A DNA stretch of 64,000 nucleotides from contig JBGAOY010000001.1 in the NCBI GenBank assembly GCA_044221555.1, positions 135,793 through 199,792 of the forward strand, written 5' to 3'. Position numbers and translations under genes: made by a program. The notes under the pieces were generated by a model, which saw only the letters and a list, made by a program, of their open reading frames with translations, did no database searches and had not been told where the DNA came from. Source of the DNA: Acidimicrobiales bacterium (GTDB taxonomy: Bacteria > Actinomycetota > Acidimicrobiia > Acidimicrobiales > DATDAH01). This document shows, one piece after another, positions 9,158 through 38,040 of this stretch; positions within the stretch are counted from its first letter, which is position 1; every line of letters begins with the position of its first letter.

Positions 9158-9178
9158 GATGCGCCCGCAGGCCTGCTC

Positions 9179-15965: not shown

Positions 15966-15996
15966 GTCGTGTCTGCTCCCCGGTCCGCCGCCGGCC

Positions 15997-17709: not shown

Positions 17710-17954
17710 GATGTTCCCCCTGGTTGGTGAAGCCGGTGCTCCGGACAGTATCCCGGTTCGGTCGGCTGTGACGGTCGACACACCCGAGACCGCGCAAGGT
17801 AGCAGGCCTGGCTCGGGGCGTGGTCGCATCCCCGACCGGAGACGGTCGGCGTCGACGCGCCGGGCCAGGCCACGCCGGCCCGCGGTGGCGGGTCGACACC
17901 GGGACCGGACGGTGGGCGGGCCAGTCGGCCCGACGCACGCGCCGCGGTGCCGGG

Positions 17955-21977: not shown

Positions 21978-24900
21978 CCAGCACGGCGGCCACCGCCTGC
22001 ACGGCCAGGATCTGGGTGGCGGCACCGAAGGCGTTGCCGCCCGGCCCGGCGCTCAGGGCCACCAGGACGCCGGCCAGGAGGTACGACGCCGCCGCCAGCA
22101 CGGGCAGCGAGTCGTCCCTGCCCGGCAGCAGGAGCAGCAGGGGCACGAGCACGGCGAGCGGGCCACCGATCACGAAGCACAGGGCGACGGCCAGGACGAA
22201 CGTGACGAGGGGGGGCAGCACGCGTCCGTCGGCCGGCGCCGGTGCGCGCGCGTGGCGGCGTCTCACGAACGCGAGCACGAAGAGCACCGCCACGAAGACG
22301 GTCCCGAGCGCCAGCGCGCCGCGGTAGTCGCGGTCGGGCGCGAACGACATGGCGACGGTGCCACCGTCGCCCGCCGGGATCACCCAGCCCTGGCGCCAGC
22401 CGTCGAGGCGCACCGGCTCGAGAGCGTGGCCGTCCAGCGTGGCCTCCCACCCCTCGTTGAAGTTCTCGGCCACGGCCAGGTAGGCCTCGTCGCCCGCCGC
22501 GACCGTGGCGGTGCGCTCGACCGTGCCCCACGAGCCGATGTCGACGGCGCGTGGCGCGGCGGCCTCGGCGCGGTCCTGATCGGTATCGGTGGCGTCACGA
22601 AGGCTGAGTCGTGACGGGTCGAACAGGGGCACCGGTGGGGCGTCGATCTCGTGGCGCCCGGCGGTGATGGCGACGGGCTCGCCGCAGCCGGTCATGGTCA
22701 GCGGTCGCGCCTCGAGCAGGTCGCGGACGCGACCCGAGAGCGAGGTCTGGACGACCTGGTCATCGATCGTGATGGCGGGCCCCTCGCCGCAGGGGCGGCG
22801 GAAGGTGGCATCCGGGTCGAGCGATGACACCCCGAGGTCGTCGAGGGCGGCGAACTCCAGCTCGGCGATGCCGACGGCCCGCGACGCGTTCGAGAGCGGG
22901 TCGACCGACGTCGGGAACGAGATCGTGACCTCGTTGGTGACGAGGGCGCGGAACGATCCCTGGCCGGCTCGCCCGATCACGACGTCCCGGTCACCGGCGG
23001 GGCTCTCGAGTCGCAGGCTGCTGGGCCGCTCGGTGGGTGCGCCGGTCGCGGTGAGCAGCACCTGCGACAGCGACCGCGGCTCGTCCCACCGGAGGGTCAC
23101 CGTGGGCACGGGGTTGGAGGGGTCGGAGATCCACGACGTGCTCGGATCGCCGTCGAGCAGTCGTCGAGCCGAGAAGTTGGGTAGGCCGCCCCATGTGGAG
23201 GTGGTGGTGACGGACACCTGGGCGGGCTCGCCCAGCGAATCCACCAGCCGGATGAGGTTGTCGCCGGGAACCGGTGCGGCAGTGCCGCTGAGGGCGAACG
23301 TGGCGGCATCGGGCAGGCGCACGACGCGGCGCAGGCCCACCTCCTCGTCGTGACGGGTCAGGTCGAAGGGGTCGGCCCGGGGGCGGTCGAGCACGACGAG
23401 CGGCGCCGCCGAGCCATCGAGCGCGTCGGGGCGGTCGGCCGGGGTGACGAGGGGCCGCTGCACCTCGAGGCCCGGGATGGTGACCTCGCTGATGCCGGGG
23501 CCCTCGAGGGCGTTGGTGCCGCCCAGCACGTCGGTGATGGTGATGCGGATGAACGAGGTCTCGCCGGACGGGAGCGACACGCCGTTGGCCCCGGCACTGG
23601 CGGCCAGGCTGCTCTCGCGGCGCCCGGCCTCGGTCGCTATCTGCACGGCGGCGACGCGCCCTCGCCCGACCCGTGCCGGAGGGATCTCGATGCCGATGCG
23701 GTCGATCTCGACGGGCTCGTCGAGTCGGAGCTCGATCCACTGGCCGACCGCGCTGCCCGTCCGGGACGGGCGCCAGACGGTGGCGGCGTCGCCGTCGAAC
23801 GCCGCGAACGGCTGCGCCTCGGGGAGGCGGGCGAGGCCGAGGGCGTAGGAGGACGAGGACAGGTCGGCGGCGCCGCGGTTGCGGGCGGTCGTCTGGTGCT
23901 CGATGCCGGGGACCACGAGGCGGTCGTGGGGTGGGCGACCGGTGTTCGGCGAGTCCTCGTCCGGGGTGAGCACGTAGGACGCGTTGGTGTGGACCCGGCC
24001 GAAGTTGACGTCGCGGCGTCCCAGGTCGTCGGTGAGCACCCACCGGTCGTCGGCACCGAGGGGCGCCCGCTCGTCGCCGGAGAGCACGACGGCCCGGTCG
24101 TCCAGTGACTCGGTCTCGTCGACCGGCAGCATGGCCTCGGGGCCGCCGCTCAGCACCTGGGTGTCGGTGGTCGGGTAGGTGACCAGGCGCGACGCCTCGG
24201 GGGCGACCTCGTAGATCTCCACCGCCTGCAGCGGGTTCGCGGCGGCCGCGGCGACGTCGGGCACGAGGCGGGTGGTGACCGCGAGGGGCTCGACCTCGGG
24301 GCCGAACCGCGCGACCCGCTCGATCCCTGGCGTGCCCGCCAGCACCGCCCGCACGATCTGTGGGCGTGGCGACGTGACGCGCCGGACGTCGAGGTCGTTG
24401 CGCACCACCAGGTACCGGACACCGGCACGGGCCAGGTACGGCGCCAGCGCCGGTGAGCGGGTGCCGGTCGTGAGGAGGTTCTCGACCCCGTCCAGGAGGC
24501 GGACGGCGCCCACCGACCCCAGCGGGATGAGGTCGCGCACCGCCCACGGATCCTCGGCGAGCGGCTGCAGCGGCTCGTTGAACGTCCGGCCCCAGTCGTA
24601 CTCGCCGAAGGACGCGCCAGGGAGGATCAGGGTGCGTTCGCCGTCACCGTGGTCGGCCAACCAGTCCGCGGTGTCCTGCCAGTAGCCGGGCAGGTGCTCG
24701 AAGGACCCGAGGGTGGCGACCCGGCCGGACACGACGGGGAACGCCGCCATGCCGATCAGCACGAGGGCGAGGGCGGCGGCGACCGGTCGGGCCCAGACCG
24801 GTCGCGGCCGGCCGGTGCGCTGCCACGATCGCCGCGTCCAGGCGGTGAGGGCGCTGGTGCCGTGGGCGACGCCGAGAGCGATCGTGAGCGCGATGACCGG

Positions 24901-25998
24901 GCTGAACTTGTGGAGGTTGCGGAAGGCCGCGAGGGGCCCGTCGAGCAGGTCGCGCACCTGGCCGGCGGCGCCACCGCCGAACGGGCCGGTGTAGCCCGAG
25001 GCCATCACCGCGGCGCCCACGCCCAGCGTGAGCGCCAGCATGGTGCGCTCGGGCATGTCCCGCCGGGCCAGGCCACCGAGGCCGAGGGCGGTGAACAGCG
25101 CGGTGGCGATCACCGCGGCGGGCAGGGTGATGAGCGACCAGGCGCCCTGCAACCAGGGTCGCCCGCCGACCACCAGGTACCCCACCCAGTTGCCGGTGCC
25201 GCGGAGCACCTCGACCGCGGAGGTGGTGGCGGTGGTGATCGACGCGGTCTCGGTGTACGCCGAGAAGGCCAGGCCGTAGCGACCCTGGAGGAGCAGGGGG
25301 ACGGCCCACCACGTGGTCGCGAGCACCACGGCGAGGGCCCACCAGCCCATCAGCGCCCGGCGCCGTGGTCCGGGCGAGCGGGTGAGCAGCCACAGCGCCG
25401 GGAAGACGAGCACGGCGATGGTGGCGGCCGCGTTGACGCCGCCCATCGCCACGATGGCCAGGCCGGACAGCGCCGCGGCCCGTCGTGTCGACCCGCGCGT
25501 GGCGCCCACGACGAGCGGGAGGACCACCCAGGGGAGCAGGGCGTGGGGCAACTCGACGCCTGACTGGAACCCCACGAGGGTGAGGATCGACGGGCTGAGG
25601 CCGTAGACCGCGGCGCCGACGACGCGGGCGCCGGGGCGGCCGATGTCGAGGGCCTCGAGCAGGCGCAGCGCGCCCCACAGCCCGATCAGCAGCAGCGACG
25701 CGAACCACACCCGCTGCAACACCCAGCCGGGCACACCGATGGCATGGCCGATCGCGAAGTACGGCCCGATCGGGAAGAGGTACCCCGCCGCCTGGTTCTG
25801 GAGCTGGCCGAACGAGGCCGATGGGTCCCAGAGGTGCAGCGTGCGACTCAGGAAGCCGACCGGGTCGACGACCAGGTCGAGCTTGGTGTCGCGCACCAGC
25901 CGGCCGGGGGCCTGCAGGAAGCAGCCGACGACCACGATCGCCGACAGCACGAGCGGCTGGGCGCGCCGGTGGGCCCAGGCCGTGAAGGTGGCGGTCAC
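21868..25998 (-). CDS. AftD-like (DUF3367-type) giant GT-C glycosyltransferase, paralog 2
   Basis: The ORF is 1376 aa. Its N-terminus reads ..GRLVRDTKLDLVVDPVGFLSRTLHLWDPSASFGQLQNQAAGYLFPIGPYF.., followed by a multi-TM core. Discoidin-like motifs are FDGDAATVWRPS and LLDGDPSTSWISD, and C-terminal TMs follow. The start is a GTG overlapping the upstream stop (GTGA). Confidence 0.75.
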   Translation of the reverse strand: MTATFTAWAHRRAQPLVLSAIVVVGCFLQAPGRLVRDTKLDLVVDPVGFLSRTLHLWDPSASFGQLQNQAAGYLFPIGPYFAIGHAIGVPGWVLQRVWFASLLLIGLWGALRLLEALDIGRPGARVVGAAVYGLSPSILTLVGFQSGVELPHALLPWVVLPLVVGATRGSTRRAAALSGLAIVAMGGVNAAATIAVLVFPALWLLTRSPGPRRRALMGWWALAVVLATTWWAVPLLLQGRYGLAFSAYTETASITTATTSAVEVLRGTGNWVGYLVVGGRPWLQGAWSLITLPAAVIATALFTALGLGGLARRDMPERTMLALTLGVGAAVMASGYTGPFGGGAAGQVRDLLDGPLAAFRNLHKFSPVIALTIALGVAHGTSALTAWTRRSWQRTGRPRPVWARPVAAALALVLIGMAAFPVVSGRVATLGSFEHLPGYWQDTADWLADHGDGERTLILPGASFGEYDWGRTFNEPLQPLAEDPWAVRDLIPLGSVGAVRLLDGVENLLTTGTRSPALAPYLARAGVRYLVVRNDLDVRRVTSPRPQIVRAVLAGTPGIERVARFGPEVEPLAVTTRLVPDVAAAAANPLQAVEIYEVAPEASRLVTYPTTDTQVLSGGPEAMLPVDETESLDDRAVVLSGDERAPLGADDRWVLTDDLGRRDVNFGRVHTNASYVLTPDEDSPNTGRPPHDRLVVPGIEHQTTARNRGAADLSSSSYALGLARLPEAQPFAAFDGDAATVWRPSRTGSAVGQWIELRLDEPVEIDRIGIEIPPARVGRGRVAAVQIATEAGRRESSLAASAGANGVSLPSGETSFIRITITDVLGGTNALEGPGISEVTIPGLEVQRPLVTPADRPDALDGSAAPLVVLDRPRADPFDLTRHDEEVGLRRVVRLPDAATFALSGTAAPVPGDNLIRLVDSLGEPAQVSVTTTSTWGGLPNFSARRLLDGDPSTSWISDPSNPVPTVTLRWDEPRSLSQVLLTATGAPTERPSSLRLESPAGDRDVVIGRAGQGSFRALVTNEVTISFPTSVDPLSNASRAVGIAELEFAALDDLGVSSLDPDATFRRPCGEGPAITIDDQVVQTSLSGRVRDLLEARPLTMTGCGEPVAITAGRHEIDAPPVPLFDPSRLSLRDATDTDQDRAEAAAPRAVDIGSWGTVERTATVAAGDEAYLAVAENFNEGWEATLDGHALEPVRLDGWRQGWVIPAGDGGTVAMSFAPDRDYRGALALGTVFVAVLFVLAFVRRRHARAPAPADGRVLPPLVTFVLAVALCFVIGGPLAVLVPLLLLLPGRDDSLPVLAAASYLLAGVLVALSAGPGGNAFGAATQILAVQAVAAVLVSLVPASWPGLPWLRPKPGAAPPAGSTDRTEAPATG

Positions 25999-26726
25999 GG
26001 GGCCGCCAGCAGCTGGTCGTGGAGGGAACGGGCCTGGTCCACCAGGGCCTGCTGGCGCGGCTCGGCGAGACGGGCACTGAGCCGGGCGCGGGCCTCGGCC
26101 CGGCTGGCGTCGGGTCGGGCGACGGCTTCCCGGTAACGCGCTCGGCCGTGCACCGCCAGCTGCTTGTCGTCGATGACCGCGAACACCCGCGCGACGTTGT
26201 CGGGCGTGTGGTCGAAGCGGGCGAAGGAGGTGCCGAACCGGGTGTTGAGCCGATCGACCACCGGGCCGAAATCGGTCGTGGCCTCGTCGAAGGTGACGAG
26301 CAGCAGGTCACCGAGGAGTGGCTGGATCTGGCGGTGGTAGTGGATCCAGTACCGCACGAGGTGCTCGACCCGGTGGTGCGGGTCGGCGATGGCCATCGAC
26401 ACCGCGGCGTCATGCGGGTCGCGCAGCAGCACCATGGTCGGCACCCCCCGGCGGGTCGCGAGCTTCACCTGGGCCGGCAGGTGCACGTGGCTCGCGACCA
26501 CGACGGGTCGCGGCTGGCTGAAGGCGAAGGCCTTCGCCGCGAAGGTGTTGCCCGAGCGGGGGAAGCCCTCGATCACCAACTCGGTGCGCGCCGTGATGGC
26601 GCGTTCGCGAGCGCTCTCCGGGGTCAGGGCCCGCTGGAGCGGGAGGAACGCCGGGGCATCGCCGAGCAATTCGTGGGCGCGGCGGACGAGCCGTCGTCCG
26701 TGCACCCGGGCGGCCGCGGTGCTCAT
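25995..26726 (-). CDS. Sulfotransferase-family protein (putative, PAPS-dependent)
   Basis: The ORF is 243 aa and soluble. LVIEGFPRSGNTFAAK resembles the 5'-phosphosulfate-binding loop (PxSGTT type). VLLRDPHDAAVSMA resembles the 3'-phosphate-binding RxPxDxxxS motif. Confidence 0.5.
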   Translation of the reverse strand: MSTAAARVHGRRLVRRAHELLGDAPAFLPLQRALTPESARERAITARTELVIEGFPRSGNTFAAKAFAFSQPRPVVVASHVHLPAQVKLATRRGVPTMVLLRDPHDAAVSMAIADPHHRVEHLVRYWIHYHRQIQPLLGDLLLVTFDEATTDFGPVVDRLNTRFGTSFARFDHTPDNVARVFAVIDDKQLAVHGRARYREAVARPDASRAEARARLSARLAEPRQQALVDQARSLHDQLLAAP

Positions 26727-28099
26727 CGGTCACCTCCGAGCGCCGCGCCCGCCTGCTCGGTCGAAGGCGACGGGTCGGGTGCCATCCGCCGGCTGACGGC
26801 GGCTGCCGCGCCGACGGCGACCAGGGGCCCGAGGACGAACCACAGGTTGCGGTCGCCGACGGTCACGACGGCGAGACCGGCTGCCAGCACCGGGACCGCG
26901 AGCCACGGCAGGTGCCGCCGCCAGGACTCGCCGAGCGTCGCGCGGCGGGCCCAGAGCTCGTCGACGGCGAGCGCGACGACGACCCCGTCGACCGCGAGCC
27001 TCAGCACCATTCCCGGCCCGCTGCCGACCGTCGCCGGCCAGGTCGCCGCAGCCGACCACCACCCATCGACGGCGTCGTCGACCCCCGAGGCCCAGAGCCA
27101 CAGCCCGAGGACGGCGGCGCCCAGGACCGTCCCGGCCCGAGCCAGTGTCGTGCCCGAGGACACCGGGGCGGGCCAGACGATGATCCACACGACGGCCACG
27201 GGGAGGACGATGAGCGCCTCAGGGCGGGCCAGCGTGCCCACCGCCAGCAGCGCGCCCGCCGTCACCGCTCTGGCCGCGGTGAGCCGGTCGGGCCAGGCGA
27301 GCAGCAGCGCGGTGACCACGGTGAGGCCGGCCAGGGCGCCCGGGAGCGGTTGGGCCCAGACGAGCGGCAGAGCCGCCACGACGAGCCCGGCGAGGATGCC
27401 GGTGCGGCGGCCGCCGAGGCGGGTGCCCAGCACGAGGGTGGCGGCGGCGGTGGCCGCGGTGGTGGCCGCGAGGGCCGCCCCGAGGGCGGAGGGGAACGCG
27501 GCCGCCACCACCAGTGCGGCCGGCGGGTACCGGGTGGCACCGGGGGCGTGCAGGAAGCCCTGGCCGGCCCGCAGCGCCTCGGCGGCGGCCCGTGCCCCAT
27601 CGGGTAGGGCGGCGGGCGCGACGGCCAGCGACACGGCGCCCGCGAGCACGGTGACGGCGGCACACGGCAGCCAGGGGCCGATCCGCTCACGCAGGGCGGC
27701 GTGGTCGGCCGGCTGGGGCGCGGCGGGGCTGAGTGCCCGATCGGAGCGGGCGGCGCGTGCGACCGCGACGAGCAGGCTCACGCCCGCGGCCAGACCAGCA
27801 GCCGCACCCCACGGCCGGTCGGCGGCGAAGCTCTGACGGAGGCTGTCGGGGCCCGGCCAGGCGCCGAGCACCGACCCGACGGCCGCGGTCGCCAGGAGGC
27901 CCACCGTGAGCGCGCCCAGCCAGTCGGGGTGACGCCGCCACACCAGCACCGCGAGGGCGGCGATCACGAGGCCGAAGGGGCCGCCGATCAGGAAGCCGCC
28001 GGCGACGACGAGCGTGATCGTCAGCGGCCCTGGTGGGGTGTCGCGTCCGGGCTGCGGTGCGGGGTCGAGCTCGTCTCGGGGGATGGGGGTGGCGGTCAC
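26723..28099 (-). CDS. Polytopic Ala-rich integral membrane protein, possibly GT-C/ArnT-like
   Basis: The ORF is 458 aa with 10 or more hydrophobic segments. It is translationally coupled on both sides by 4-nt overlaps. The family was not recognised with confidence. Confidence 0.5.
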   Translation of the reverse strand: MTATPIPRDELDPAPQPGRDTPPGPLTITLVVAGGFLIGGPFGLVIAALAVLVWRRHPDWLGALTVGLLATAAVGSVLGAWPGPDSLRQSFAADRPWGAAAGLAAGVSLLVAVARAARSDRALSPAAPQPADHAALRERIGPWLPCAAVTVLAGAVSLAVAPAALPDGARAAAEALRAGQGFLHAPGATRYPPAALVVAAAFPSALGAALAATTAATAAATLVLGTRLGGRRTGILAGLVVAALPLVWAQPLPGALAGLTVVTALLLAWPDRLTAARAVTAGALLAVGTLARPEALIVLPVAVVWIIVWPAPVSSGTTLARAGTVLGAAVLGLWLWASGVDDAVDGWWSAAATWPATVGSGPGMVLRLAVDGVVVALAVDELWARRATLGESWRRHLPWLAVPVLAAGLAVVTVGDRNLWFVLGPLVAVGAAAAVSRRMAPDPSPSTEQAGAALGGDR

Positions 28100-31000
28100 G
28101 CGGGCCGTCTCGGGGAGGTGGTCGGACGGGGGGCCCGAGCCCGGAGTGCCGGGCGCAGCAGGATGGCGACACAGAGGACCACCCCGACGAGCGTGGCCAC
28201 CAGCGCGCCACGGTACGTGCGCTCAGGAGCGTAGGTCAGGTCGACCACGTGCTCGCCCGCGGGGAGGGACCACGTGGCCAGGGTGCCCACGGGCCGTGCC
28301 GGGCCCAGGTCGGCGCCGTCGGCCGTGGCCCGCCAGCCGGGGTCGAAGGACTGCCCCGTGGACACGAGCGTGTCACCCGCGCTCTCCACGCGGAGCCGCA
28401 GGTGACCGGCGTCGCGTGCGAGCACCTCGACCGACGGCTCGTCCACGGCGGCAGCGGGAGCGATCGATCCGGAGGCGAGACCGACGGCGTCGACGATGGC
28501 GTCAGCGGTCGCCAGCACGTGGCGGCCGGCGGGCACGGTGATGCCATCACAGCCGGTGAACGGGACCTGCTCGCCGTCGAGGGCGCGGTCGAGATCTCCC
28601 GGTGCCAGCCGGATGCCTCTGGGGCGACCGTCCACCGTGAGCACCGTGTCGTTGCACGCGGTGCCGTCGACGTCCCCGTCGGCACGGACCGGAGGGCCGT
28701 CGCCGTCGCTGACGGCCACTTCGCTGAGGCGTGCGGGGCGGTTGCCGTTGGCGCCGCCCGCGACGGTGCTGGCCAGGCGGACGACCACCTTGTCCGCCTC
28801 GGTCGGCGGTATTTCGAGCGTGCCGGTCTGCTCGCAGTCGGTGTCGTCGCACCCTTCGGCGGTCTCGAGATCGAGCGACTCCTCCCGCCCCCCGACCAGG
28901 ACGTCGACCCGGTTGACCGGCGAGCTCTCCGCGTCGGCGGGGCTGGTCACCTGGATCCGGCTGACGGTCTGGGTCGGGAACAGGATGGTCAGCTCCTCAC
29001 CGTCGCGGGGCGGCACGGCCCAGGCGGTGGCGGGGTCGCCGTCGATCGCCGCGAGCCCACGGTTCTCGAGTGCGCCCTGCGCTCGGGTCGAGCCGTGGGC
29101 CGAGACGCCGTCGTCCCGGAACCCGGAAAGGAAGCGGTCGAGCTCGAGGTCGGTCGTGCGCACGTCGAGGCCGAGACGGCCCGAGAGATCGAAGGTGCGC
29201 GGTGCGGCCACGCGGAAGCTCCGCCGCACGACGACCTCCTCGTCCTGGGCGCCTGTGCCCTGTACACGGTCGAACAGGTAGCGCAGCGGCGCGTCGGCCA
29301 GCGCGGCGCGCAGGCGGCCGTCGGATGCGGCCGCGGTGGCGACGTCGTCGGGAATGGCGATCACCTCGGTGAGGTCGACGCCGGGGATGGCGATCTCGCG
29401 GAACCCGACCGCCGCCGTGCCGGCGCGGCTCACGTCGTCGATGCGGAGCTCCAGGAAGGTGGTCTGCCGGGCCGGGATGCGGACCTCGGTGGTGCCGCCC
29501 TCCTCGAGGTGGACGGGGACCGGCTCGCCGGAGGAGAAGTGAAGGCTGACATCGGTGACCCGGCGACCGGCGTCGCTGGGGAGAAAGGGCAGGAGCGAGA
29601 GGCGGTCGATCGTCTCCGGCTGCGCGAACTGGACACGGAGGAAGGCGCCGGTGGGGTCCTCGAGGCCGCCGGTGAGCCAACTGGTGGTGTAGTTGCCGTC
29701 GAACGCGTTCGCGGGCCGCAGCCAGGGCTGGAAGCCGGTGATCCGTGTGCCCGACGACGATGCCTCGATCGCGGTCGCATCCTGGAACTCGGCCACCGAC
29801 TGGGTCCCCGGCCGCCCGAAGAGGTCCTGGGCCGGCTGGTCGAGGTCCTGGCCTTCGCTCAGCGTGTGCGACTGGGTGGGGACGGCCCCACGGATGCGGG
29901 TGAGGCGCCGGCGGTTCGTGTCGGTGACGACGAGCGGTGATCCGTCATCGAGGGCCTGCAGCAGGGACGCGGCATCGAGGTCGCCCGTGTACGCCACCGG
30001 CCGCTGGCCGTCGAGCACGCCGGCAGCCGCGGCCACGGGCCAGGCGCCACCGTCGCCGGACACCAGCAGCGGCGGCACGTCCGGGCGGGCGAGGCCCGGG
30101 GGTGCGGTGGTGGGCGCGGCGTCGCGCACGGTGTAGATCTCGACGGGCGGGAGCGAGCGCTCGGTGGTGCCCGCGTAGGACCGGTCGGCCGGGTCGACGA
30201 CCGACTGGCCGGCGTCACCGAAGCGCCGGTCGAGCTCGAGGTCGGGGTCGTGGCGGACGAGGTCGAGGTCGCCCGGCCTGACCACCTGCGACTGCTCCCA
30301 GTCGAGGTCGTTGCGGATCAGCACCCGATCGACCCCGAGCGCTCTCGCGATCGGGCCGAGCTCGCCGGGGCCGAGCGTGCCGTCGGCGATCCTCGCCTCG
30401 AGCGCGTCGACCAGGTTCGCCGACTGCGGGCCGCTCAGGGGGAAGGCGTTGGAGATCACGTTCGGGTGGCGGTGCAGGTAGGTGTCGAAGATGTCGTCGC
30501 CCGGCTCGCCCCACCGGTAGGCGGTCTTGGTCGTGCCGGGAAGCACCAGCACGCGCCCGGAGCCGGGTCGGGCGTCGAGGTACGACAAGGCGTCCTGCCA
30601 GTACGTGGGCACGTCGCTGAGGTGGTTGCGCTCGGGGTAGAGGCCGCCGTTCCAGAACGGCAGCGACACGGCGAGCACCACCACCACGGCGACCGCGCCC
30701 GGCAGCGCCCGCCACCCGGGTCGGGTGCGTTCGAGGCGGGGGGCGGCGATGGCGACACCGACCCCCACGAGCGCGGCGACGGCCATCATCAGGCCCGAGC
30801 CGGCCTTGTAGGTGTTCCGCAGCGACGCCAGCCCCGGCACCGCGTCGTAGGCGCGGAGCAGCAGCCAGCCGGTGGGTGGTGGGTCGGACGGCGGGTACGA
30901 GCCCACCATCAGGACCAGGCTGACGAGGGCGAGGGCGCCGAACAGCGAGCGGGCGCGCCACCGTGACTTCCACAGCACCACCGCGGCGGTGACGGGAGCG

Positions 31001-31968
31001 ACGAACGTGACCAGCACGCCCAGGGCGGTCTCGTAGTAGTAGGTGCCGCCGGGCAGGCGCTCTGCGCCCGACGCGTCGCTGAAGTAGCTGAGCCAGAACC
31101 CGAGCCCCCGCCACGACTCCGCCCACGACGACGTCTCGTTGACCCGTTCGGGCAACTCGGTGAACTGCAGCCGCTGGGCCAGGGGGTCGCTGCCGAGCAG
31201 GGTCTTGGCCAGGGCCGCGGCCGTCGTGAGCACGGTGAGCGCAGCGGCGCGTGCCAACCATCCGGCCACCTGGCGCCAGGTGGCCCGACGGTCCACGACG
31301 ACGAGCCAGATCGCCGCGGGCACGAGCCACAGCACGGCGAAGAACGTGCCGGGGGTGTCGGCGTTGCCGGCCGAGAACACGAGGAGCGCGAAGCCGGCGG
31401 CCCACCGCCACGGGCGCGTGCTGCCGACGCCGCGCAGGAACATGACCAGCAGCCACGGCGCGATCGCGTAGTTCCAGAAGAGCACCGACGGCAGCAGGAA
31501 CGTCGCGGTGAAGGGGTTGAACATGTAGAGCAGGCCGGCGAGCAGCGCGGCCGGCCCGACCCTGCCCAGGAAGACCCGCAGCAGGCTCACCATGCCGAGC
31601 CCGGCGATCACCAGCACCCCGGCGTGCCAGACGTGCTCGGTGAGCGGCGCGGAGAGGCCGAGCCCGCGCAGCACGGCGATGGGGTAGCTGACGGGCCAGA
31701 ACTCCTCGCCCACCCGCCCGATCCCGCGGCTGGCGTCCCACAGGCCCGACTCGCGCAGGAGTCGGGCGGCAGGCCCCCAGAACTGCTCGAAGCGGTTGTC
31801 GCCGACGTAGTCGCCGGGGTCGTTGGTGAGGGTGGCGACGAGGGCCAGCGCCGCGAACAGCAGCCCGGTCGGCCAGAGTCGGTCGCGGGTCACGTCGGGC
31901 AGGATCCAGCCGGTCCCGGTGGACGCGGGCGCGCGCAACTGGTCGGGGGTGTCGCGCTCGTGGCTCAT
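28096..31968 (-). CDS. AftD-like giant GT-C glycosyltransferase, divergent paralog 3
   Basis: The ORF is 1290 aa with the same overall architecture: an N-terminal polytopic domain, a large extracytoplasmic region with NAFDGNYTTSWLTG and AAIDGDPATAWAVP discoidin-like motifs, and a C-terminal TM. The first loop is divergent (DYVGDNRFEQFWGPAARLLRESGLWDASRGIG). Confidence 0.6.
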   Translation of the reverse strand: MSHERDTPDQLRAPASTGTGWILPDVTRDRLWPTGLLFAALALVATLTNDPGDYVGDNRFEQFWGPAARLLRESGLWDASRGIGRVGEEFWPVSYPIAVLRGLGLSAPLTEHVWHAGVLVIAGLGMVSLLRVFLGRVGPAALLAGLLYMFNPFTATFLLPSVLFWNYAIAPWLLVMFLRGVGSTRPWRWAAGFALLVFSAGNADTPGTFFAVLWLVPAAIWLVVVDRRATWRQVAGWLARAAALTVLTTAAALAKTLLGSDPLAQRLQFTELPERVNETSSWAESWRGLGFWLSYFSDASGAERLPGGTYYYETALGVLVTFVAPVTAAVVLWKSRWRARSLFGALALVSLVLMVGSYPPSDPPPTGWLLLRAYDAVPGLASLRNTYKAGSGLMMAVAALVGVGVAIAAPRLERTRPGWRALPGAVAVVVVLAVSLPFWNGGLYPERNHLSDVPTYWQDALSYLDARPGSGRVLVLPGTTKTAYRWGEPGDDIFDTYLHRHPNVISNAFPLSGPQSANLVDALEARIADGTLGPGELGPIARALGVDRVLIRNDLDWEQSQVVRPGDLDLVRHDPDLELDRRFGDAGQSVVDPADRSYAGTTERSLPPVEIYTVRDAAPTTAPPGLARPDVPPLLVSGDGGAWPVAAAAGVLDGQRPVAYTGDLDAASLLQALDDGSPLVVTDTNRRRLTRIRGAVPTQSHTLSEGQDLDQPAQDLFGRPGTQSVAEFQDATAIEASSSGTRITGFQPWLRPANAFDGNYTTSWLTGGLEDPTGAFLRVQFAQPETIDRLSLLPFLPSDAGRRVTDVSLHFSSGEPVPVHLEEGGTTEVRIPARQTTFLELRIDDVSRAGTAAVGFREIAIPGVDLTEVIAIPDDVATAAASDGRLRAALADAPLRYLFDRVQGTGAQDEEVVVRRSFRVAAPRTFDLSGRLGLDVRTTDLELDRFLSGFRDDGVSAHGSTRAQGALENRGLAAIDGDPATAWAVPPRDGEELTILFPTQTVSRIQVTSPADAESSPVNRVDVLVGGREESLDLETAEGCDDTDCEQTGTLEIPPTEADKVVVRLASTVAGGANGNRPARLSEVAVSDGDGPPVRADGDVDGTACNDTVLTVDGRPRGIRLAPGDLDRALDGEQVPFTGCDGITVPAGRHVLATADAIVDAVGLASGSIAPAAAVDEPSVEVLARDAGHLRLRVESAGDTLVSTGQSFDPGWRATADGADLGPARPVGTLATWSLPAGEHVVDLTYAPERTYRGALVATLVGVVLCVAILLRPALRARAPRPTTSPRRPA

Positions 31969-33197
31969 GCAGTCGGCCGTACGGGCTGGCTGGCGCCGGC
32001 CGGCGTGCCGGGACGCTTGGGCAGCGTGGGCAGGCCGAGGTTGCGGAGGCGGGAGGTCGGGCGCTCGACGGTCAGGTAGGTGACCGCGGAGGCGGTGATG
32101 GAGAGCACGAGCGCGATGTAGAGGGTGGGCCAGAAGGCCGCGACCTCCTTGCCGCCGAGCCAGTCGGCGGCGTGGATGAGGAACAGCATGTGCCAGAGGT
32201 AGATGCCGTAGCTGAGCTCGCTCATGACCCGCAGCGGTCTACTACCGAGGGCGCGGTGAGAGAGCGCGGCCTCCCGTCCCAGCACCGCGGGGATGAAGAC
32301 GAACAGCGCCGCGAGGGTGTAGAGCAGGTAGCGGGCCATCTGGTCGGACGGGGTCAGCTTGAAGGCGTCGATCGGGTTGATACGCGACAGCGGCAGGTGC
32401 AGCTGGCCGAGGAGCACGAACATCCCCAGCGCCGCGCCGAAGCACACCGCGGGGCGGTCGGCGAGCCAGCGCGCCGCCCGGGGGACACCGCCGCCCTGCT
32501 CCGCCCAGGTCACTCCCACCGCGAAGGCCATGCCGAGCCCGAAGAAGTCGGCCTGGGACGGCAGCCAGATGTCGACGAGGCGCGTGGTGCCCTGGAGCAA
32601 CCAGAAGCACCGCCACACCGGTCCGATCAGGGCGAACAGGGCCACCATCATGATCTCGCCGTTGAGCCGGGCCCGCCGTGAGGTGCCGAGCCGCTTGGCG
32701 ATGGCCCGTGCCGCCAGTGCCAGGAGCGGCACGACCAGGTAGTAGCTGACGTCCACCGCGAGCGTCCACGCCGCGAGGATGCCCCGGCCGAAGGTGGCGG
32801 GGGAGTAGATCTGGAAGAGGGCGTAGACCCGGATGTAGCCCCAGAGCCCCGGCACGTTCTGGTTGCCCTGCAGGAAGTAGACGGTGACGACCACCCAGTA
32901 CAGGGGGTAGATCCGCAGCAGTCGCTGCCACAGGAACCGCCGGGTGGCGGGGGCCGGCCGGTTCTGGAGATGGCGGGCGACGAAGGGCCGGTACACGAGG
33001 AATCCGGACATGGTGAAGAAGATGACCACCGCGAAGTAGCCGGTGAAGTTGGCGCCCAGCACCGGATGGTCTTCGACGACGCGCAGCCCCTCGGCGGCGT
33101 GGCACACCACGACCAGCAGGCACGCCAGTGCGCGGTACCCGTCGAGCGGCGCGAAGCGGCCGGCCCGGCTGAGCTTGAACGGGGCCAGCGCGTTCAC
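31965..33197 (-). CDS. Acyltransferase family 3 (OafA/YrhL-like membrane O-acyltransferase), copy 1
   Basis: The ORF is 410 aa. FAPLDGYRALACLLVVVCHA and the 10-TM pattern are typical of Acyl_transf_3. Confidence 0.8.
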   Translation of the reverse strand: MNALAPFKLSRAGRFAPLDGYRALACLLVVVCHAAEGLRVVEDHPVLGANFTGYFAVVIFFTMSGFLVYRPFVARHLQNRPAPATRRFLWQRLLRIYPLYWVVVTVYFLQGNQNVPGLWGYIRVYALFQIYSPATFGRGILAAWTLAVDVSYYLVVPLLALAARAIAKRLGTSRRARLNGEIMMVALFALIGPVWRCFWLLQGTTRLVDIWLPSQADFFGLGMAFAVGVTWAEQGGGVPRAARWLADRPAVCFGAALGMFVLLGQLHLPLSRINPIDAFKLTPSDQMARYLLYTLAALFVFIPAVLGREAALSHRALGSRPLRVMSELSYGIYLWHMLFLIHAADWLGGKEVAAFWPTLYIALVLSITASAVTYLTVERPTSRLRNLGLPTLPKRPGTPAGASQPVRPTA

Positions 33198-34525
33198 GGC
33201 GGCGGCCCACCGTTCGACGGGGCGGGAGCCACCTCGGCGACCGTCGCCTGGTCCGACGTCGCCACGTCAGCGATCGCCTCGTCAGCGGTCGCGTCGTCAG
33301 CCGTCGCCGCCTGCGAGCGGCCGTGGCTCGACGACGGCAGGACGCGCGAGGTGGCCGAGAGGAGGCCGCCGAGCCGCACGCGCTGGATCGGTCGCTCGAG
33401 CAGGACCCAACTGGCCGAGGCGATGACCGCGGTGATCGCCAGCGTGGCGCCGAACAGCGGCCAGTACGAGACCGAGTCCCCTCGGTCGATCCCCTTCGTG
33501 AGCAGGTAGAGCACGAGCAGGTGCCAGAGGTAGATCCCATAGGACACCTCGCCGGTCCATCGGACCGGGACCGACCGCAGGGCGCGGCGGTACCACGTGC
33601 GCTGCTGGTTCCCGAAGACCAGCGGGGCGAGGAGCAGGAAGCCGACGAGCCCGTAGCAGACGTGGCGGGCGAGCTCGTCGCCGAGGCTGCGCGGGGCGAA
33701 GCCGGTGGGGACGTCGAGCATCGCGACCACCCACACCAGCTCGAGGGCGATGGCCACCCCGAGCAACGGGTAGCGCCCCAGGTAGCGGAAGACGGCGGGG
33801 AGCGGCCCACCGGCCTTCTGGCGGGCACGCACCACGGCGATCACCATGCCCATCGCGAAGAGGTCGGTCCAGGCCAGGAAGCCGGCCAGGGCGCCCGGGT
33901 ACACCTTGTCGGTGACGAGCCACCGGGCGGTCACCCCCACCGCGTACAACAGGACCAGGCCGAGCCATTCGGCGCTCAGCCGGCCGTCGCGCCCGATCAG
34001 GGTGCCGAGGCGGCGGATGCCCCAGGCGTACAGCGGCAGCACCACGTAGAAGGTCAGCTCGATGGTGAGGGTCCAGGCGACCGCGATGCCGGTGAGGCCG
34101 AGGGACCGCGAATACCCCTGCAGCAGCGAGACCCGGAGCAGGAGGTGGTCGGTGATCGAGGCACGGATCGCCGGCGAGGCCAGCAGGATGAACGCCGCCA
34201 GCGCCAGCCAGTAGGCGGGGAAGATCCGGAGGAACCGGCGCCGGAAGTAGGGGCCGAGGGCCGGCGCCGGGCGCCGGCCGAGGTGGGCGACGACGAAGGG
34301 CCGGTAGAGCAGGAACCCGGAGATGGCGAAGAAGATCGAGACGCCGAGCCGGCCGAGCTGGTTGGTGTAGTCGGCCACCCAGCTGTCGCCGGCGTTGACG
34401 CCCGTGGCCGGCCCCGCGACGTGGAACGCCACGACCATGATCGCCGCGGCGGCCCGCAGGCCGTCGATGCACGGGAAGTAGCGGTCGGGCTGCGAGCGCG
34501 ACGGGGCAGCGCCCGACGGTGTCAC
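33194..34525 (-). CDS. Acyltransferase family 3, copy 2
   Basis: The ORF is 443 aa. FPCIDGLRAAAAIMVVAFHV is present and the protein is colinear with copy 1. It has an acidic, Ala/Thr-rich C-terminal tail. Confidence 0.8.
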   Translation of the reverse strand: MTPSGAAPSRSQPDRYFPCIDGLRAAAAIMVVAFHVAGPATGVNAGDSWVADYTNQLGRLGVSIFFAISGFLLYRPFVVAHLGRRPAPALGPYFRRRFLRIFPAYWLALAAFILLASPAIRASITDHLLLRVSLLQGYSRSLGLTGIAVAWTLTIELTFYVVLPLYAWGIRRLGTLIGRDGRLSAEWLGLVLLYAVGVTARWLVTDKVYPGALAGFLAWTDLFAMGMVIAVVRARQKAGGPLPAVFRYLGRYPLLGVAIALELVWVVAMLDVPTGFAPRSLGDELARHVCYGLVGFLLLAPLVFGNQQRTWYRRALRSVPVRWTGEVSYGIYLWHLLVLYLLTKGIDRGDSVSYWPLFGATLAITAVIASASWVLLERPIQRVRLGGLLSATSRVLPSSSHGRSQAATADDATADEAIADVATSDQATVAEVAPAPSNGGPPP

Positions 34526-35715
34526 GGCGCCGAGGTCGTCGTCGACGAGCCCCCCGCTCCCGAACCCGAGCCGTTGCCCCCGCCACCGCCACCGCCACCG
34601 CCACCGGTGATCGGCACCCCGCCGGGCAGGCCGGCGACGAAGTCGTCGAACCGGGCATCGGTGGAGTCGGGCCCGCGAGCGGTGATGCCGACCTTGCCCG
34701 CGTCGACCTGGAAGTCGTCCACGATGGTCTTGCGGATCCGGCCGTTGATGATCACCTCGATGGTGTCGCCGCGGAGGCGCACACCCACCGTGGTGCCGTC
34801 GGCGGTGGGTGACTGGCCGGTGTTGCCCACGACCTCCTGGTCACCGTCGACGACCTTGATCACGTTCCAGGTGGCGACGTCGGGGACGGCGACGACCGCC
34901 CAGTAGTTGTACGGGCCGACGTAGCGGAACACGAGGCCCGAGTTGGTGACGACCTTGTCGAGCCGGACCTGCGCGCCCCCGTCGCCCTGGCCCAACCCGA
35001 TCACGGCGTGGTTGCGGAACTCGCCGCCCCGCACCAGGTACGCCTCGTCGGCGTCGATGCCCCAGGTGCCGGTCTCGGGGCTCCACGGCCGTCCGGGGGC
35101 GAAGTCGCCGAGCGTCGTGTCGGAGTCGGCCCGGTCGAACTGGTCGGTGGTGCCGAAGATGCCCACGTCGGTGCGGGCGTCGGCTGCGGTCGAGTCGTTG
35201 CCGCCGCCACCGCCGCCGCCACCTCCACCGTCACCACTGGTGGCGATGAGGACGCCGACGATGGCGATGGCCACGAACGCCACCACCGCCCCGACGACGA
35301 GCATCACCCGGCTGGGCCCCTCGTCGTCGAGGTCGTCGTCGTAGTCGCCCTCACCGTGGTCGAGGTCGCCGTCGCCGTCTCCCTCGGCGTCGCCGGTGTC
35401 CGTGGCCGCGTCCTTGCCGCCGACGTCGGCGTGCACGTCGAACGGCTCGGCCAGCGGTGGCAACTCGTGTGGAGCGTCCTCGTCGTCGGCCGCGTCGGTG
35501 GCGTCTGGCGTGTCGTCGTGGGCCAACCCGCCGGCGTCGGCCGGCTCGCCGGCGTCGCCCGGCCCGTCCGAGCCGTCGGTCTCGTGCCCCTCGGGGGGCG
35601 CGTCGGGCCCCTCGTCGGCCTCGTTGTCGGCGGTGGTCGCTGCACCGGGGGCGTCGCTGCCGTCGAGATCGGGGTCGGTGGCCTCGTCGTCGGCCTCGGT
35701 CTGGTTCGAAGTCAC
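34522..35715 (-). CDS. Single-pass membrane protein: acidic disordered N-terminus, TM, Gly10 linker, ConA/LamG-like jelly-roll domain, Gly10 linker
   Basis: The ORF is 397 aa. Residues about 1-135 are extremely Asp/Glu/Gly/Ala-rich. The TM is VMLVVGAVVAFVAIAIVGVLIA. The folded region reads ..WGIDADEAYLVRGGEFRNHAV..VTNSGLVFRYVGPYNYWAVV..GVRLRGDTIEVIINGR..GITARGPDSTDARFDDFV, which resembles DUF1080/LamG-type lectin folds. Confidence 0.6.
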   Translation of the reverse strand: MTSNQTEADDEATDPDLDGSDAPGAATTADNEADEGPDAPPEGHETDGSDGPGDAGEPADAGGLAHDDTPDATDAADDEDAPHELPPLAEPFDVHADVGGKDAATDTGDAEGDGDGDLDHGEGDYDDDLDDEGPSRVMLVVGAVVAFVAIAIVGVLIATSGDGGGGGGGGGGNDSTAADARTDVGIFGTTDQFDRADSDTTLGDFAPGRPWSPETGTWGIDADEAYLVRGGEFRNHAVIGLGQGDGGAQVRLDKVVTNSGLVFRYVGPYNYWAVVAVPDVATWNVIKVVDGDQEVVGNTGQSPTADGTTVGVRLRGDTIEVIINGRIRKTIVDDFQVDAGKVGITARGPDSTDARFDDFVAGLPGGVPITGGGGGGGGGGNGSGSGAGGSSTTTSAP

Positions 35716-35840
35716 AGTGGAACTATCCTAGGTTGGTCCACGTGCCCGGACGGGCCGCGCCCGCCGAAGTGTCGGCCCGGCGCCAGGTCCGTCCCCGGTC
35801 GTTCGCCCGTCCCTGTCCTCGGCCACCCCGGATCCCTTCC

Positions 35841-36644
35841 ATGAGCAACGACGCCGCCGCCACCTCGTCCCTCGAGCCCCGATCCGACGCGGTCGAGGGG
35901 CCGGCCCGACGGTTCTCCGACGTGCTGGCGTCGGTCGCCCACGTCGAGGGGTGGATGACGCCCGCGCAGGCGCGTTGGCTGTGGGACCGGGCATCGGTGC
36001 TGCGGCCTCCGGCCACCGTGGTCGAGATCGGCAGCTACCGGGGGCGGTCGGCAATCATCCTGGCCAGCGCCGCGGCACCCGGGGTGGACGTCATCGCCAT
36101 CGACCCCCACGGCGGCAACGACCGCGGCCCCCAGCAGATCAAGGCCGTCCCCGAGGAGGGCCAGCGCGACAACGACGCGTTCAACGCCAACCTCGAGGCG
36201 GCCGGGGTGGCCGACCGCGTGCGTCATGTGCGGCGGCCCAGCCAGGAGGCCCTCGACGCGGTCGAGGGGCCCGTCGACCTGCTCTACATCGACGGCGCCC
36301 ACCGGTACGGCCCCGCCCGAGACGACATCCGCCGCTGGGGCGACCGGGTGGCCGACGGGGGCACGCTGCTGATCCACGACTCGTTCAGCTCGGTCGGCGT
36401 CACCCTCGCCATCGTCACGTCGCTGTTCTTCGGGGGACGCTTCCGCTACCTCGGTCGCACCACGTCGATGACCGCCTACCGCTGCGAGCGACTGGGCGCG
36501 GCCGACCGGGCCCGGAACGCGCTGGCGCAGGCCGCGCAGCTGCCCTGGTTCGTGCGCAACGTGATCGTCAAGACGCTGATCCTGGCCAAGCTCGACTCGG
36601 TGGCCCGTCTGCTCGGCCACCACGACCAGGTCTGGCCCCACTGA
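35841..36644 (+). CDS. Class I SAM-dependent methyltransferase (Methyltransf_24-like)
   Basis: I trimmed the track ORF to the ATG at 35841 (MSNDAAATSS..). Motifs are VVEIGSYRGRSAIILA, IDPHGGND, LLYIDGAHRYGPARDDIRRWG and GGTLLIHD. Confidence 0.65.
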   Translation: MSNDAAATSSLEPRSDAVEGPARRFSDVLASVAHVEGWMTPAQARWLWDRASVLRPPATVVEIGSYRGRSAIILASAAAPGVDVIAIDPHGGNDRGPQQIKAVPEEGQRDNDAFNANLEAAGVADRVRHVRRPSQEALDAVEGPVDLLYIDGAHRYGPARDDIRRWGDRVADGGTLLIHDSFSSVGVTLAIVTSLFFGGRFRYLGRTTSMTAYRCERLGAADRARNALAQAAQLPWFVRNVIVKTLILAKLDSVARLLGHHDQVWPH

Positions 36645-36681: not shown

Positions 36682-38040
36682 GTGACCACGACCGGGGGTC
36701 GGGCGCCGCGTTCGCGACCCGGGTCCCTGGTGGAGGACCACGGTCACCTGCTCCGCGGCTCCGCGTGGCTGTTGGTCAGTGTGGCGGCCAACGCCGTCGG
36801 GGGGTTCGCCTTCTGGCTCATCGCCGCTCGCATCGACTCGAACGACGACGTGGGGCGGGCCGCCGCCCTGTTCACCTCGGTGATGTTCGTCAACTACGCC
36901 ACCAACATGGGCCTCCCGGTGGCGGTCGCCCGCTATTCGCCCGACGACGGGGCCCCCTCGACGGTCCTGTTCAACTGGTCCATCCTCTACACGGCCGCCT
37001 CGTCGCTCGTCGGCACCGCGCTGTTCCTCGCGTTCCTGCCCGACTCGGTGGCCGACACGCTGTGGCAGTGGGGGCTCCCGGCCGGTGTCCTGATCTTCCT
37101 GTCCGTCGTGTTCGGGATGTCGTGCGCGGTCCTGGTCGAGGTGCGCCTGATGGCGCTGCGCCGGTGGGGATGGGTGTTCACCCGGGTGGCGGTCGTAGGG
37201 CTCGTGCGGTTCGCGTTCGTGCTGGTGCACCCGCTCGACGACGAGGCGCTGTGGCTGTTCCTCGTGGTGGCCGGCATACCGGCCCTGTCCGGGATGGTCG
37301 GTTACGTGGTGCTGCTGGCCCGGCGCCGTTCCCCGCACCCGCTCCGGCCGCTCCCCGCCAACTGGCGAGCGGGCCTGCGCTACTCGTGGGTCAACTACCT
37401 CGGCGTCCTCGCGGTGCAGGCTGCCACCTTCGCGCTGCCCCTGCTGGTGTCCATCGAGGTCGCCTCCGGTGACTACGCCGCGTTCTACGTGGCGTTCAGC
37501 ATCACCAGCGTGATCTTCCTCGTCCCGCACACCCTCGGCCAGGTGTTGCTGGTGGAAGGGGGCAAGGACGGCGCCGACCTGGGCCACCAGGTGCGCCTGG
37601 CGCTGGTGCTGGCCCTCGGCTTCATGGTCGTCGTGGCCGTCGGTGGCCGGGTGGCAAGCGGCTTGGTCACCGACATCTACGGGCCCGACTACGCCCCGGC
37701 GGCCAGGATCCTGCCCACCCTCGTGCTGGCGGGCGTGGGCTGGGCGATCACGTCGATCTGCCTCACCAAGGCACGCGTGCAGGAGCGCGTCGGGGCCATC
37801 GTCACCATCGCCACGGCGCTGGCCCTCGGCATCCTGCTCCCGGCGCTGGTGTTGGTGGCCGACGACGGCATCGACGGTGCCTCCCGGGCCTGGCTGGTCG
37901 GGAACGCCATCGCCGCGGTCACGGCGGTGGTGGTGACGGCGCGCAACAGCCGTCAGGGGGCGTTGGCCGCCGACGCGGCGTGGCTCGACGCGTCGGACGG
38001 CGACGAGACGAGCGCGTCCCGTGCCCTCAGCCCCGGCTGA
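36682..38040 (+). CDS. Polysaccharide/oligosaccharide flippase-like membrane protein (MOP/Wzx superfamily)
   Basis: The ORF is 452 aa with about 12-14 TM. The N-terminal LLRGSAWLLVSVAANAVGGFAFWLIAARI pattern is typical of polysaccharide biosynthesis (Wzx-like) proteins. The start is a GTG. Confidence 0.5.
   Translation: MTTTGGRAPRSRPGSLVEDHGHLLRGSAWLLVSVAANAVGGFAFWLIAARIDSNDDVGRAAALFTSVMFVNYATNMGLPVAVARYSPDDGAPSTVLFNWSILYTAASSLVGTALFLAFLPDSVADTLWQWGLPAGVLIFLSVVFGMSCAVLVEVRLMALRRWGWVFTRVAVVGLVRFAFVLVHPLDDEALWLFLVVAGIPALSGMVGYVVLLARRRSPHPLRPLPANWRAGLRYSWVNYLGVLAVQAATFALPLLVSIEVASGDYAAFYVAFSITSVIFLVPHTLGQVLLVEGGKDGADLGHQVRLALVLALGFMVVVAVGGRVASGLVTDIYGPDYAPAARILPTLVLAGVGWAITSICLTKARVQERVGAIVTIATALALGILLPALVLVADDGIDGASRAWLVGNAIAAVTAVVVTARNSRQGALAADAAWLDASDGDETSASRALSPG

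Follow-up and report, generated by a model that had tools for sequence, protein, structure and literature searches.

The DNA analysed here (the window) is a stretch of 64,000 nucleotides from an Acidimicrobiales bacterium (assembly GCA_044221555.1, contig JBGAOY010000001.1, positions 135,793 to 199,792 of the forward strand), and the subject of this report is the membrane protein encoded by one of its genes, the target gene. The target is the first of seven minus-strand genes that run from 35715 to 21868 (~13.8 kb) and are chained by 4-nt start/stop overlaps of the GTGA/ATGA type, an arrangement that reads as an unusually tight, translationally coupled operon. Downstream of the target, the operon encodes two AT3 (Acyl_transf_3) acyltransferases, a GT-C glycosyltransferase related to AftD, two proteins of 458 and 243 amino acids, and a second AftD-like GT-C (Table 1). 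An earlier reading of this DNA, made from the sequence alone (the sequence-only reading), had placed the target at the head of an operon, and this position was confirmed by a 122-bp divergent gap upstream and by the 4-nt overlap of its stop codon with the GTG start of the next gene; a scan of the gap for promoters and terminators found none. The open reading frame was judged to be real because its codon-position GC contents (0.92 at third and 0.53 at second positions, in a window of 72–75% GC) are typical of genes in the window and because its N-terminus, MTSNQTEADDEATD, is conserved among orthologs. Searches of the target against Pfam and NCBIfam gave no match above threshold.

The encoded protein comprises, from its N-terminus, an acidic tail, one transmembrane helix, a run of ten glycines (Gly10), a folded domain of ~190 amino acids, a second Gly10 run and a Ser/Thr tail, and it is probably a single-pass type II membrane protein. 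We propose, at what we judge to be about an even chance, that the target is a tethered, outward-facing, non-catalytic glycan-binding subunit that acts in trans for the GT-C machinery; glycan binding, the absence of catalysis and cooperation with the GT-Cs are all inferred. Among the functions that the sequence-only reading had entertained, an acceptor-presenting or glycan-binding role is the one that the evidence favours.

Structure prediction places the folded domain in the concanavalin A (ConA)-like lectin/glucanase fold class. An AlphaFold2 model of residues 174–370, built on an alignment of 33 homologs, was all-beta with 16 strands and had a mean predicted local distance difference test score (pLDDT) of 95 and a predicted template modelling score (pTM) of 0.90. 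A Foldseek search of the PDB with this model returned 199 matches at E ≤ 1e-3, and the top 50 were mostly ConA-like lectins, carbohydrate-binding modules (CBMs) and GH16-type glucanases. The best match was CBM66 (4b1m, 4azz; E 6e-8, template modelling score by target length, TMt, 0.70–0.74, root-mean-square deviation, rmsd, ~3 Å, 13–14% identity), followed by the lectin domain of galactocerebrosidase, GH16 glucanases and the central fibre of Mycobacteriophage Douge; a PL7 lyase and domains associated with GH43 were also among the PDB matches. The ConA/LamG-like jelly roll anticipated from the sequence was thus borne out at the level of the fold.

Phage proteins proved to be better structural matches to the domain than any solved structure that we found. 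A Foldseek search of BFVD recovered minor tail and tail-fibre proteins of Arthrobacter, Gordonia, Rhodococcus and Mycobacterium phages (E 1.5e-12 to 1e-9, template modelling score by query length, TMq, 0.70–0.79, rmsd 2.4–3.4 Å, 19–24% identity). These actinophage domains are the closest structural relatives recovered for the target domain, and one such protein, Douge gp20 (PDB 8zdp), was also among the top PDB matches. Phage minor-tail and tail-fibre proteins commonly mediate host-surface recognition. Both they and the target come from the biology of Actinomycetota and can be expected to encounter envelope glycans, but the phage domains sit in long fibre proteins, whereas the target domain sits on a membrane anchor. 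The link to phages is structural only, because no match emerged when 50,697 phage genomes were searched with the domain by tblastn, and PHROGs gave a weak 'tail protein' match in a single family member out of 21.

The fold is therefore well placed, whereas membership of a named sequence family was not established, as no sequence match was found in Pfam, NCBIfam, the PDB or phage genomes. The ConA-like Pfam families Laminin_G_3 and 3keto-disac_hyd/DUF1080 gave no above-threshold match to the target. Among the 33 homologs there were sub-threshold hints of 3keto-disac_hyd (two members, best E 0.0064) and Phage_head_fibr (six members), and Laminin_G_3 is present in a multi-repeat relative (P0096). 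A profile of the family searched against PDB sequences returned chance matches only, leaving the CBM66 chains unmatched even at E ≤ 10. CBM66 is a module of the Bacillus subtilis exo-levanase SacC, a secreted hydrolase, and binds the ends of fructan chains. As the closest solved fold, it resembles the target domain in being a non-catalytic ConA-like beta-sandwich of similar size, but it is appended to a secreted hydrolase, whereas the target is free-standing, membrane-tethered and encoded in a biosynthetic operon. CAZy families are defined by sequence; the target shares the fold of CBM66 and lacks the sequence similarity (13–14% identity, empty profile search) expected of a family member.

ConA-like folds also house enzymes, GH16 and PL7 among them, and this weighs against a purely binding role. 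The domain might be a membrane-tethered ConA-fold hydrolase, transglycosylase or lyase that trims, cleaves or cross-links the polymer made by the operon, as other ConA-fold enzymes process polymers (GH16 ExoK on succinoglycan, Crh in fungal walls). GH16 glucanases, a PL7 lyase and GH43-associated domains among the structural matches and the sub-threshold 3keto-disac_hyd hits speak for such an enzyme, as do four invariant residues, D357, D358, R264 and R355. These belong to a set of 22 invariant domain positions that includes W211, W218, R264, W272, N298-T299-G300 and R355-F-D357-D358-F359. However, no invariant Glu and no conserved ExDxxE motif were found in 21–33 homologs, and the IDADE of the window is variable, reading IDSGE, IVDGE, ITSGQ or IAGEQ elsewhere. 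A GH16-type enzyme was rejected on the missing catalytic motif. The pair D357-D358 lies in the last strand, within RFDDF, and looks like a structural motif. Among solved structures a non-catalytic CBM matches best, and phage tail proteins surpass all other matches. Trp, Arg, Asn and Asp abound in the invariant set, as they do at sugar-binding sites. We therefore consider an enzymatic function unlikely and return to the tethered glycan-binding subunit.

The location of the domain was addressed through its anchor. Residues 137–159 form the one hydrophobic helix of the target (Kyte-Doolittle mean 3.14 across 19 residues), in agreement with the single transmembrane segment reported from the sequence. 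The positive-inside signal is weak, with one Arg ahead of the helix. The main argument for an outward-facing domain comes from the homologs, since the type of anchor is interchangeable: P0042–P0048 carry a short N-terminal signal anchor instead of a transmembrane anchor behind a tail, and in P0028 a lipoprotein signal (LLSGC) replaces both acidic tail and anchor. Among 196 family proteins surveyed, 148 are small single-domain members, and 121 of these had exactly one N-terminal transmembrane helix; a lipobox was found in ~10 members. The exchange of transmembrane helix, signal anchor and lipobox supports the proposed tethering outside the membrane, and we strongly infer that the domain of the target is located there.

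The target belongs to a large family. A word-indexed search retrieved 53 clusters, all annotated 'hypothetical' and all from metagenome bins of Acidimicrobiales/Actinomycetota, and a scan of GTDB identified a Microthrixaceae metagenome-assembled genome as the closest, with 96% identity across the domain. An exhaustive profile search extended the family to 4,424 representative clusters (50% identity) at E ≤ 1e-3, with 258 at E ≤ 1e-30. Its forms include tandem pairs, giant proteins of up to 3,465 amino acids with 5–12 repeats, and proteins of 810–870 amino acids that carry the domain at the C-terminus, and most of the multi-domain or long members that we examined have no Pfam domain whatsoever. 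One family protein from Frankia is annotated as RHS repeat / DNRLRE domain-containing. This is thus a widespread, unannotated ConA-like family that lacks a Pfam or NCBIfam model, and the target, as a dedicated tethered member of an AftD/AT3/MmpA-type operon, gives it its first consistent genomic context.

That context was examined by mapping the window proteins onto 15 related loci, which amount to 14 distinct ones because L003 repeats L002. An AftD-like gene lies beside the target homolog in 12 of the 14 loci, including an ortholog of the first AftD-like gene of the operon in 11, so that a linkage to AftD-like genes in other genomes, which the sequence-only reading had suggested looking for, was indeed found. 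A MOP-type flippase and an MmpA-like gene, both encoded on the plus strand upstream of the target in the window, were each present in 11 of the 14. The linkage was kept down to 41% identity despite changes in gene order. Loci of the close clade retain the entire gene order, both AT3 genes included, whereas those of the distant clade have the flippase gene, the target homolog and in some cases a second copy in that order, each stop overlapping the next start; their AftD-like gene has a divergent and their MmpA-like gene a convergent orientation, and they lack AT3 genes. Across the 14 loci, the stable core consists of the target, the AftD-like gene, the flippase and the MmpA-like gene.

Second copies of the target homolog occur in the distant clade, in tandem in L002 (10001–11550) and L003, and with other genes between the copies in L012. 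L014 has its second copy fused to a polytopic membrane protein of ~620 amino acids, and the same arrangement, with the domain C-terminal to the membrane protein, was found in P0074, P0075, P0089, P0099, P0106 and P0110. A stand-alone homolog of this fusion partner is encoded in two loci of the distant clade (L002, L013). As the fusions show, the domain works when joined to an integral membrane protein that these loci encode. An AlphaFold2 model of P0074 (pLDDT 75) had the arabinosyltransferases EmbA/B/C, GT-Cs that carry CBMs at the C-terminus, as the sole membrane proteins among its top PDB Foldseek matches (~800 alignment columns, E 1.6e-5 to 1.7e-4, TMq 0.23–0.28), which suggests that the fusion partner is a GT-C.

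We propose that the target is a dedicated accessory subunit of a conserved envelope glycan assembly system of Acidimicrobiales (Microthrixaceae-type) that would comprise AftD-like GT-Cs, an MmpA-like GT-C without CBMs, a MOP-type flippase and AT3 acyltransferases. In the proposed mechanism, a lipid-linked precursor would first be flipped, and the tethered domain would then hold the nascent or acceptor glycan at the membrane surface, where the active sites of the GT-Cs and the channels of the AT3 proteins open. A similar role can be seen in EmbA/B/C and AftD, which have a beta-sandwich CBM of their own near the GT-C active site at the outer membrane face. Unlike these CBMs, the target is a separate polypeptide with its own anchor (fused to a membrane protein in relatives), and it would supply in trans the carbohydrate binding that Emb and AftD carry in cis. 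Neither PF24607 (CBM_AftD) nor F5_F8_type_C matched the target, whereas the neighbouring AftD-like proteins match both. The CBM-less MmpA-like protein is an attractive partner, yet the data do not discriminate it from the AftD-like enzymes.

Two known systems offer partial parallels. In Kre6 and Skn1, two type II membrane proteins of yeast that are needed for the synthesis of beta-1,6-glucan, a disordered cytoplasmic N-terminal tail precedes one transmembrane helix and a luminal GH16-like ConA fold. They share the layout of the target; they are eukaryotic and retain a GH16-like sequence, and homology is not claimed. FecB-Rv3035, a periplasmic accessory complex of AftB (Sci Adv 2026, PMC13041763), sets a precedent for an Aft-type GT-C that needs separate periplasmic helpers, although its folds and genes are unrelated to those of the target.

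Several observations weigh against a glycan-binding subunit that serves the GT-Cs. First, the AftD-like enzymes encoded here already carry CBMs of their own, so the need for a further one is not obvious. Second, the assignment of the fusion partner as a GT-C rests on low TMq values and on a model with a pLDDT of 75, hhalign found no relation of the partner to AftD, and the window contains no homolog of it. Third, one of the related loci (L006, 12 kb) lacks a detectable AftD-like gene. Lastly, the source organism is known from metagenome assemblies only.

The gene content of the window also recalls a conserved locus of Mycobacteriales. The tmaT locus comprises aftD, the AT3 gene tmaT, lmcA, mmpA, a glycosyltransferase gene and mtrP; two preprints of 31 July 2026 describe a complex of AftD with the AT3 enzyme TmaT in mycobacteria and corynebacteria, and an R-X10-H motif has been described for TmaT. 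The window resembles the tmaT-aftD-mmpA locus in holding AftD-like genes, AT3 genes (with R-X10-H in both translations), a GT4 glycosyltransferase gene, a methyltransferase gene and an MmpA-like gene that falls below the family cut-off. The MmpA-like protein scored E 4.5e-52 and 177 bits against NF053599, under the 210-bit equivalog cut-off, and its relation to the GT-C domain of AftD was recovered by hhalign (probability 97.4%, 513 columns). A bolder and, in our estimate, improbable extension of the accessory-subunit proposal is that the target is the CBM subunit missing from the MmpA-type GT-C and that the locus is a mycolate-free, ancestral form of the TmaT-AftD-MmpA 'regulatory node'. Acidimicrobiia are not known to have mycolic acids. 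If the extension were true, the original and perhaps still primary job of the node would be the acylation and extension of an envelope glycan, not mycolate transport, and actinophage tail proteins would have taken up this fold subtype as a means of recognising the glycan. Irrespective of this extension, an out-group locus with a tethered lectin-like subunit offers a comparative handle on the roles of AftD, AT3 and MmpA proteins before mycolic acids.

The comparison with the tmaT locus raises a further alternative, in which the target binds a lipid-linked intermediate and passes it from the flippase to the GT-Cs as a functional analogue of LmcA/PgfA (Rv0227c, MSMEG_0317, NCgl2760). With an AT3 gene next to it and the MmpA-like gene close by, the target occupies a position like that of lmcA, which is located between tmaT and mmpA. 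In the distant clade it comes directly after the flippase gene, whose stop overlaps its start, and the tether of the target is short and constant in length. LmcA is likewise a single-pass, mostly periplasmic, beta-rich protein encoded beside AT3 and MmpA-type genes. However, the usual ligands of ConA-like sandwiches are sugars bound on an open face and not lipids in a cavity. In LmcA, a closed beta-barrel with lipid cavities lies between a signal peptide and a C-terminal transmembrane helix (PMC8972800), whereas the target has an open sandwich after an N-terminal helix, so that the topology is opposite and the fold different, and no sequence similarity links the two or links the target to any PDB entry. 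We rejected equivalence to LmcA on fold and topology; the target is at most a positional analogue, and the transfer of a lipid-linked intermediate is quite improbable.

The C-terminal tail brought up an alternative to the glycan-binding subunit that concerns the target as a substrate. Orthologs keep the motif (S/T)TTT-x-x-P at their extreme C-terminus though the Gly/Ala/Asn linker that precedes it varies freely, and distant homologs have Thr/Pro-rich C-terminal tails. The conserved motif could be a site of O-glycosylation or of partner binding. If the target were itself glycosylated, on the Thr-rich tail or on the Asn-x-Ser (N-x-S) triplets that follow the Gly10 runs, it might be the protein that primes or anchors the glycan, and genes for PMT_2-like GT-Cs in the window and in related loci are consistent with this. 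But the N-x-S triplets lack conservation, secreted proteins of actinobacteria commonly have Thr/Pro-rich tails as linkers, and it is the folded domain and not the tail that forms the conserved core of the protein and recurs in fusions. A role as primer or anchor is, in our view, decidedly doubtful.

The low-complexity parts of the protein, on which the sequence-only reading had laid weight, gave a mixed outcome. Its description of the sequence was accurate: both Gly10 runs are present and exactly ten residues long, the first followed by NDS and the second by NGS, and residues 1–135 are 82% D/E/G/A/T/P and 36% D+E, with 35 Asp, 13 Glu and one basic residue (net charge −47). Runs of at least five glycines occur in the target only among the 34 predicted proteins of the window (18,110 amino acids) and are therefore not background composition. 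Their status as designed features did not hold. On the coding strand both runs are hexanucleotide arrays, (GGTGGC)n, which Tandem Repeats Finder (TRF) delimited at 35200–35235 (period 6, 6 copies) and 34576–34606 (period 6, 5.2 copies, 96% matches). Set against the L007 ortholog (92% nucleotide identity), the second array of the window contains 15 extra nucleotides as a clean insertion, and the first run differs by 3 nt. Two orthologs with 96% protein identity (P0001, P0002) have GGRGGNGS in place of the second run, and P0002 has DDS at the first N-x-S site. Across orthologs, the longest stretch of Gly measures between 3 and 10 residues, and N-x-S is missing at both sites in most. The arrays, the insertion and the differences in P0001 and P0002 mark the Gly10 runs and N-x-S triplets as clade-specific products of slippage and not functional determinants. 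A reading of the triplets as N-glycosylation sequons was rejected, as they are not conserved.

The acidic tail behaved in a similar manner. Its coding DNA contains imperfect tandem repeats (TRF; periods 6, 21 and 33 nt), which also encode its most acidic stretch, GDGDGDLDHGEGDYDDDLDDEG (window 35321–35392), and indels between the window and L007 are located in this acidic-repeat region. Most homologs down to ~52% identity retain an acidic tail (30–49% D+E, 56–140 amino acids) with no conservation of its sequence, and in P0031 and P0038 a basic or short tail stands in its place. Homologs at 41–52% identity lack it and begin straight at the hydrophobic anchor, so that, together with the lipoprotein signal of P0028, an acidic tail as a general feature of the family was not upheld. 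The tail is a clade-specific property whose exact sequence is slippage-driven decoration and not a functional determinant. As microsatellite-type drift, the eye-catching Gly10 runs and acidic tail call for cautious interpretation. Taken together, the prospect that the low-complexity parts reflect lineage-specific drift, which the sequence-only reading had itself raised, came true for those parts, while the fold and the genomic linkage survive.

The length of the tether is better conserved than its composition. In the acidic-tail clade, the distance from the transmembrane helix to the first motif of the domain is steady at 25–31 amino acids while the length of the Gly run drifts, and the linker behind the anchor has a median of 42% Gly; in the distant clade the linker is not Gly-rich and spans 36–42 residues. 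The second run was not borne out as a leash, since the protein ends just 17 residues beyond it, with no further element to tether. That the target is a ruler or regulator of glycan chain length with Gly leashes as spacers is very improbable: the steady tether of the close clade and the presence of a Wzx-like flippase with no recognisable Wzz/PCP-type (polysaccharide co-polymerase) regulator among the scanned locus genes favour it, but the Gly tracts change length by slippage between near-identical orthologs, the distant clade has a different linker, the C-terminal 'leash' tethers nothing, and there is no resemblance to the PCP/Wzz architecture. PCP/Wzz regulators have two transmembrane helices flanking a largely helical periplasmic domain. 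A Wzz/PCP-like ruler was rejected for the target, which has one transmembrane helix, an all-beta domain and linkers that vary by slippage.

Table 1. Features of the target gene and of the surrounding glycan locus, in window coordinates
Feature	Position	Strand	Basis and remarks
Target gene	34522..35715	−	397 codons plus stop, GTG start; operon gene 1
Acidic disordered N-terminal tail, residues 1–135	35311..35715	−	Composition; probably on the cytoplasmic side
Single transmembrane helix, residues 137–159	35239..35307	−	Sequence VMLVVGAVVAFVAIAIVGVLIAT; probable type II signal anchor
Gly10 run 1, residues 163–172	35200..35229	−	Part of a ~30-residue Gly-rich tether from transmembrane helix to domain
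ConA-like beta-sandwich, residues ~183–363	34627..35169	−	AlphaFold2 and Foldseek; putative glycan-binding module
Gly10 run 2, residues 371–380	34576..34605	−	Window-specific microsatellite expansion
C-terminal Ser/Thr tail	34525..34563	−	Sequence SGAGGSSTTTSAP; terminal motif (S/T)TTT-x-x-P conserved in orthologs
AT3 (Acyl_transf_3) acyltransferase, gene 2	33194..34525	−	PF01757 E 8e-31; 4-nt overlap with target
Second AT3 acyltransferase, gene 3	31965..33197	−	PF01757 E 2.7e-28; 4-nt overlaps on both sides
AftD-like 1 GT-C, gene 4	28096..31968	−	PF11847 E 1.8e-63; CBM_AftD and F5_F8_type_C
458-aa polytopic membrane protein, gene 5	26723..28099	−	No Pfam/NCBIfam match
243-aa protein, gene 6	25995..26726	−	Sulfotransfer_1 E 0.031, sub-threshold; conserved in close-clade loci
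AftD-like 2 GT-C, gene 7	21868..25998	−	PF11847 754 bits; nearest to canonical AftD; 4-nt overlap with gene 6
Methyltransf_24 methyltransferase	35838..36644	+	Pfam E 2.6e-22; divergent from target; position conserved in close clade
MOP-type flippase (Polysacc_synt, Wzx-like)	36682..38040	+	PF01943 E 6.4e-6, just sub-threshold
MmpA-like short GT-C, 626 aa	38021..39901	+	NCBIfam NF053599; AftD-type core without CBMs
Third full-length AftD-like gene	693-5018		
PMT_2-like GT-C	4934-6223		

The remaining genes add detail to the locus. A region of 40 kb holds three full-length AftD-like GT-Cs together with the MmpA-like core and the PMT_2-like GT-C. Homologs of the 458-amino-acid protein lie directly downstream of an AftD-like gene in L002 and L005; its hhalign alignment with the PMT_2-like GT-C was weak (probability 24%), and hhalign detected no relation of the ~620-amino-acid fusion partner to the MmpA-like, PMT_2-like and 458-amino-acid proteins. 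The 243-amino-acid protein contains an FPRSGNT motif reminiscent of the loop that binds 3'-phosphoadenosine-5'-phosphosulfate, and from its sequence it may sulfate or otherwise modify the glycan. Two neighbours in L002, of 444 and 250 amino acids, were considered as counterparts of the 458- and 243-amino-acid proteins of the window and rejected by BLASTP: the former is an ortholog of the MOP-type flippase and the latter the second copy of the target.

The glycan locus is flanked in the window (7484–18147) by genes for an AMP-binding enzyme and an Opp-type ATP-binding cassette transporter (SBP_bac_5, BPD_transp_1). Such genes also flank the glycan locus in the distant locus L005 (10108–17536), there with a PP-binding carrier domain and a phosphopantetheinyl transferase. 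This flank recalls the acyl carrier protein bound to mycobacterial AftD that is described in a preprint (bioRxiv 10.1101/2019.12.22.885152).

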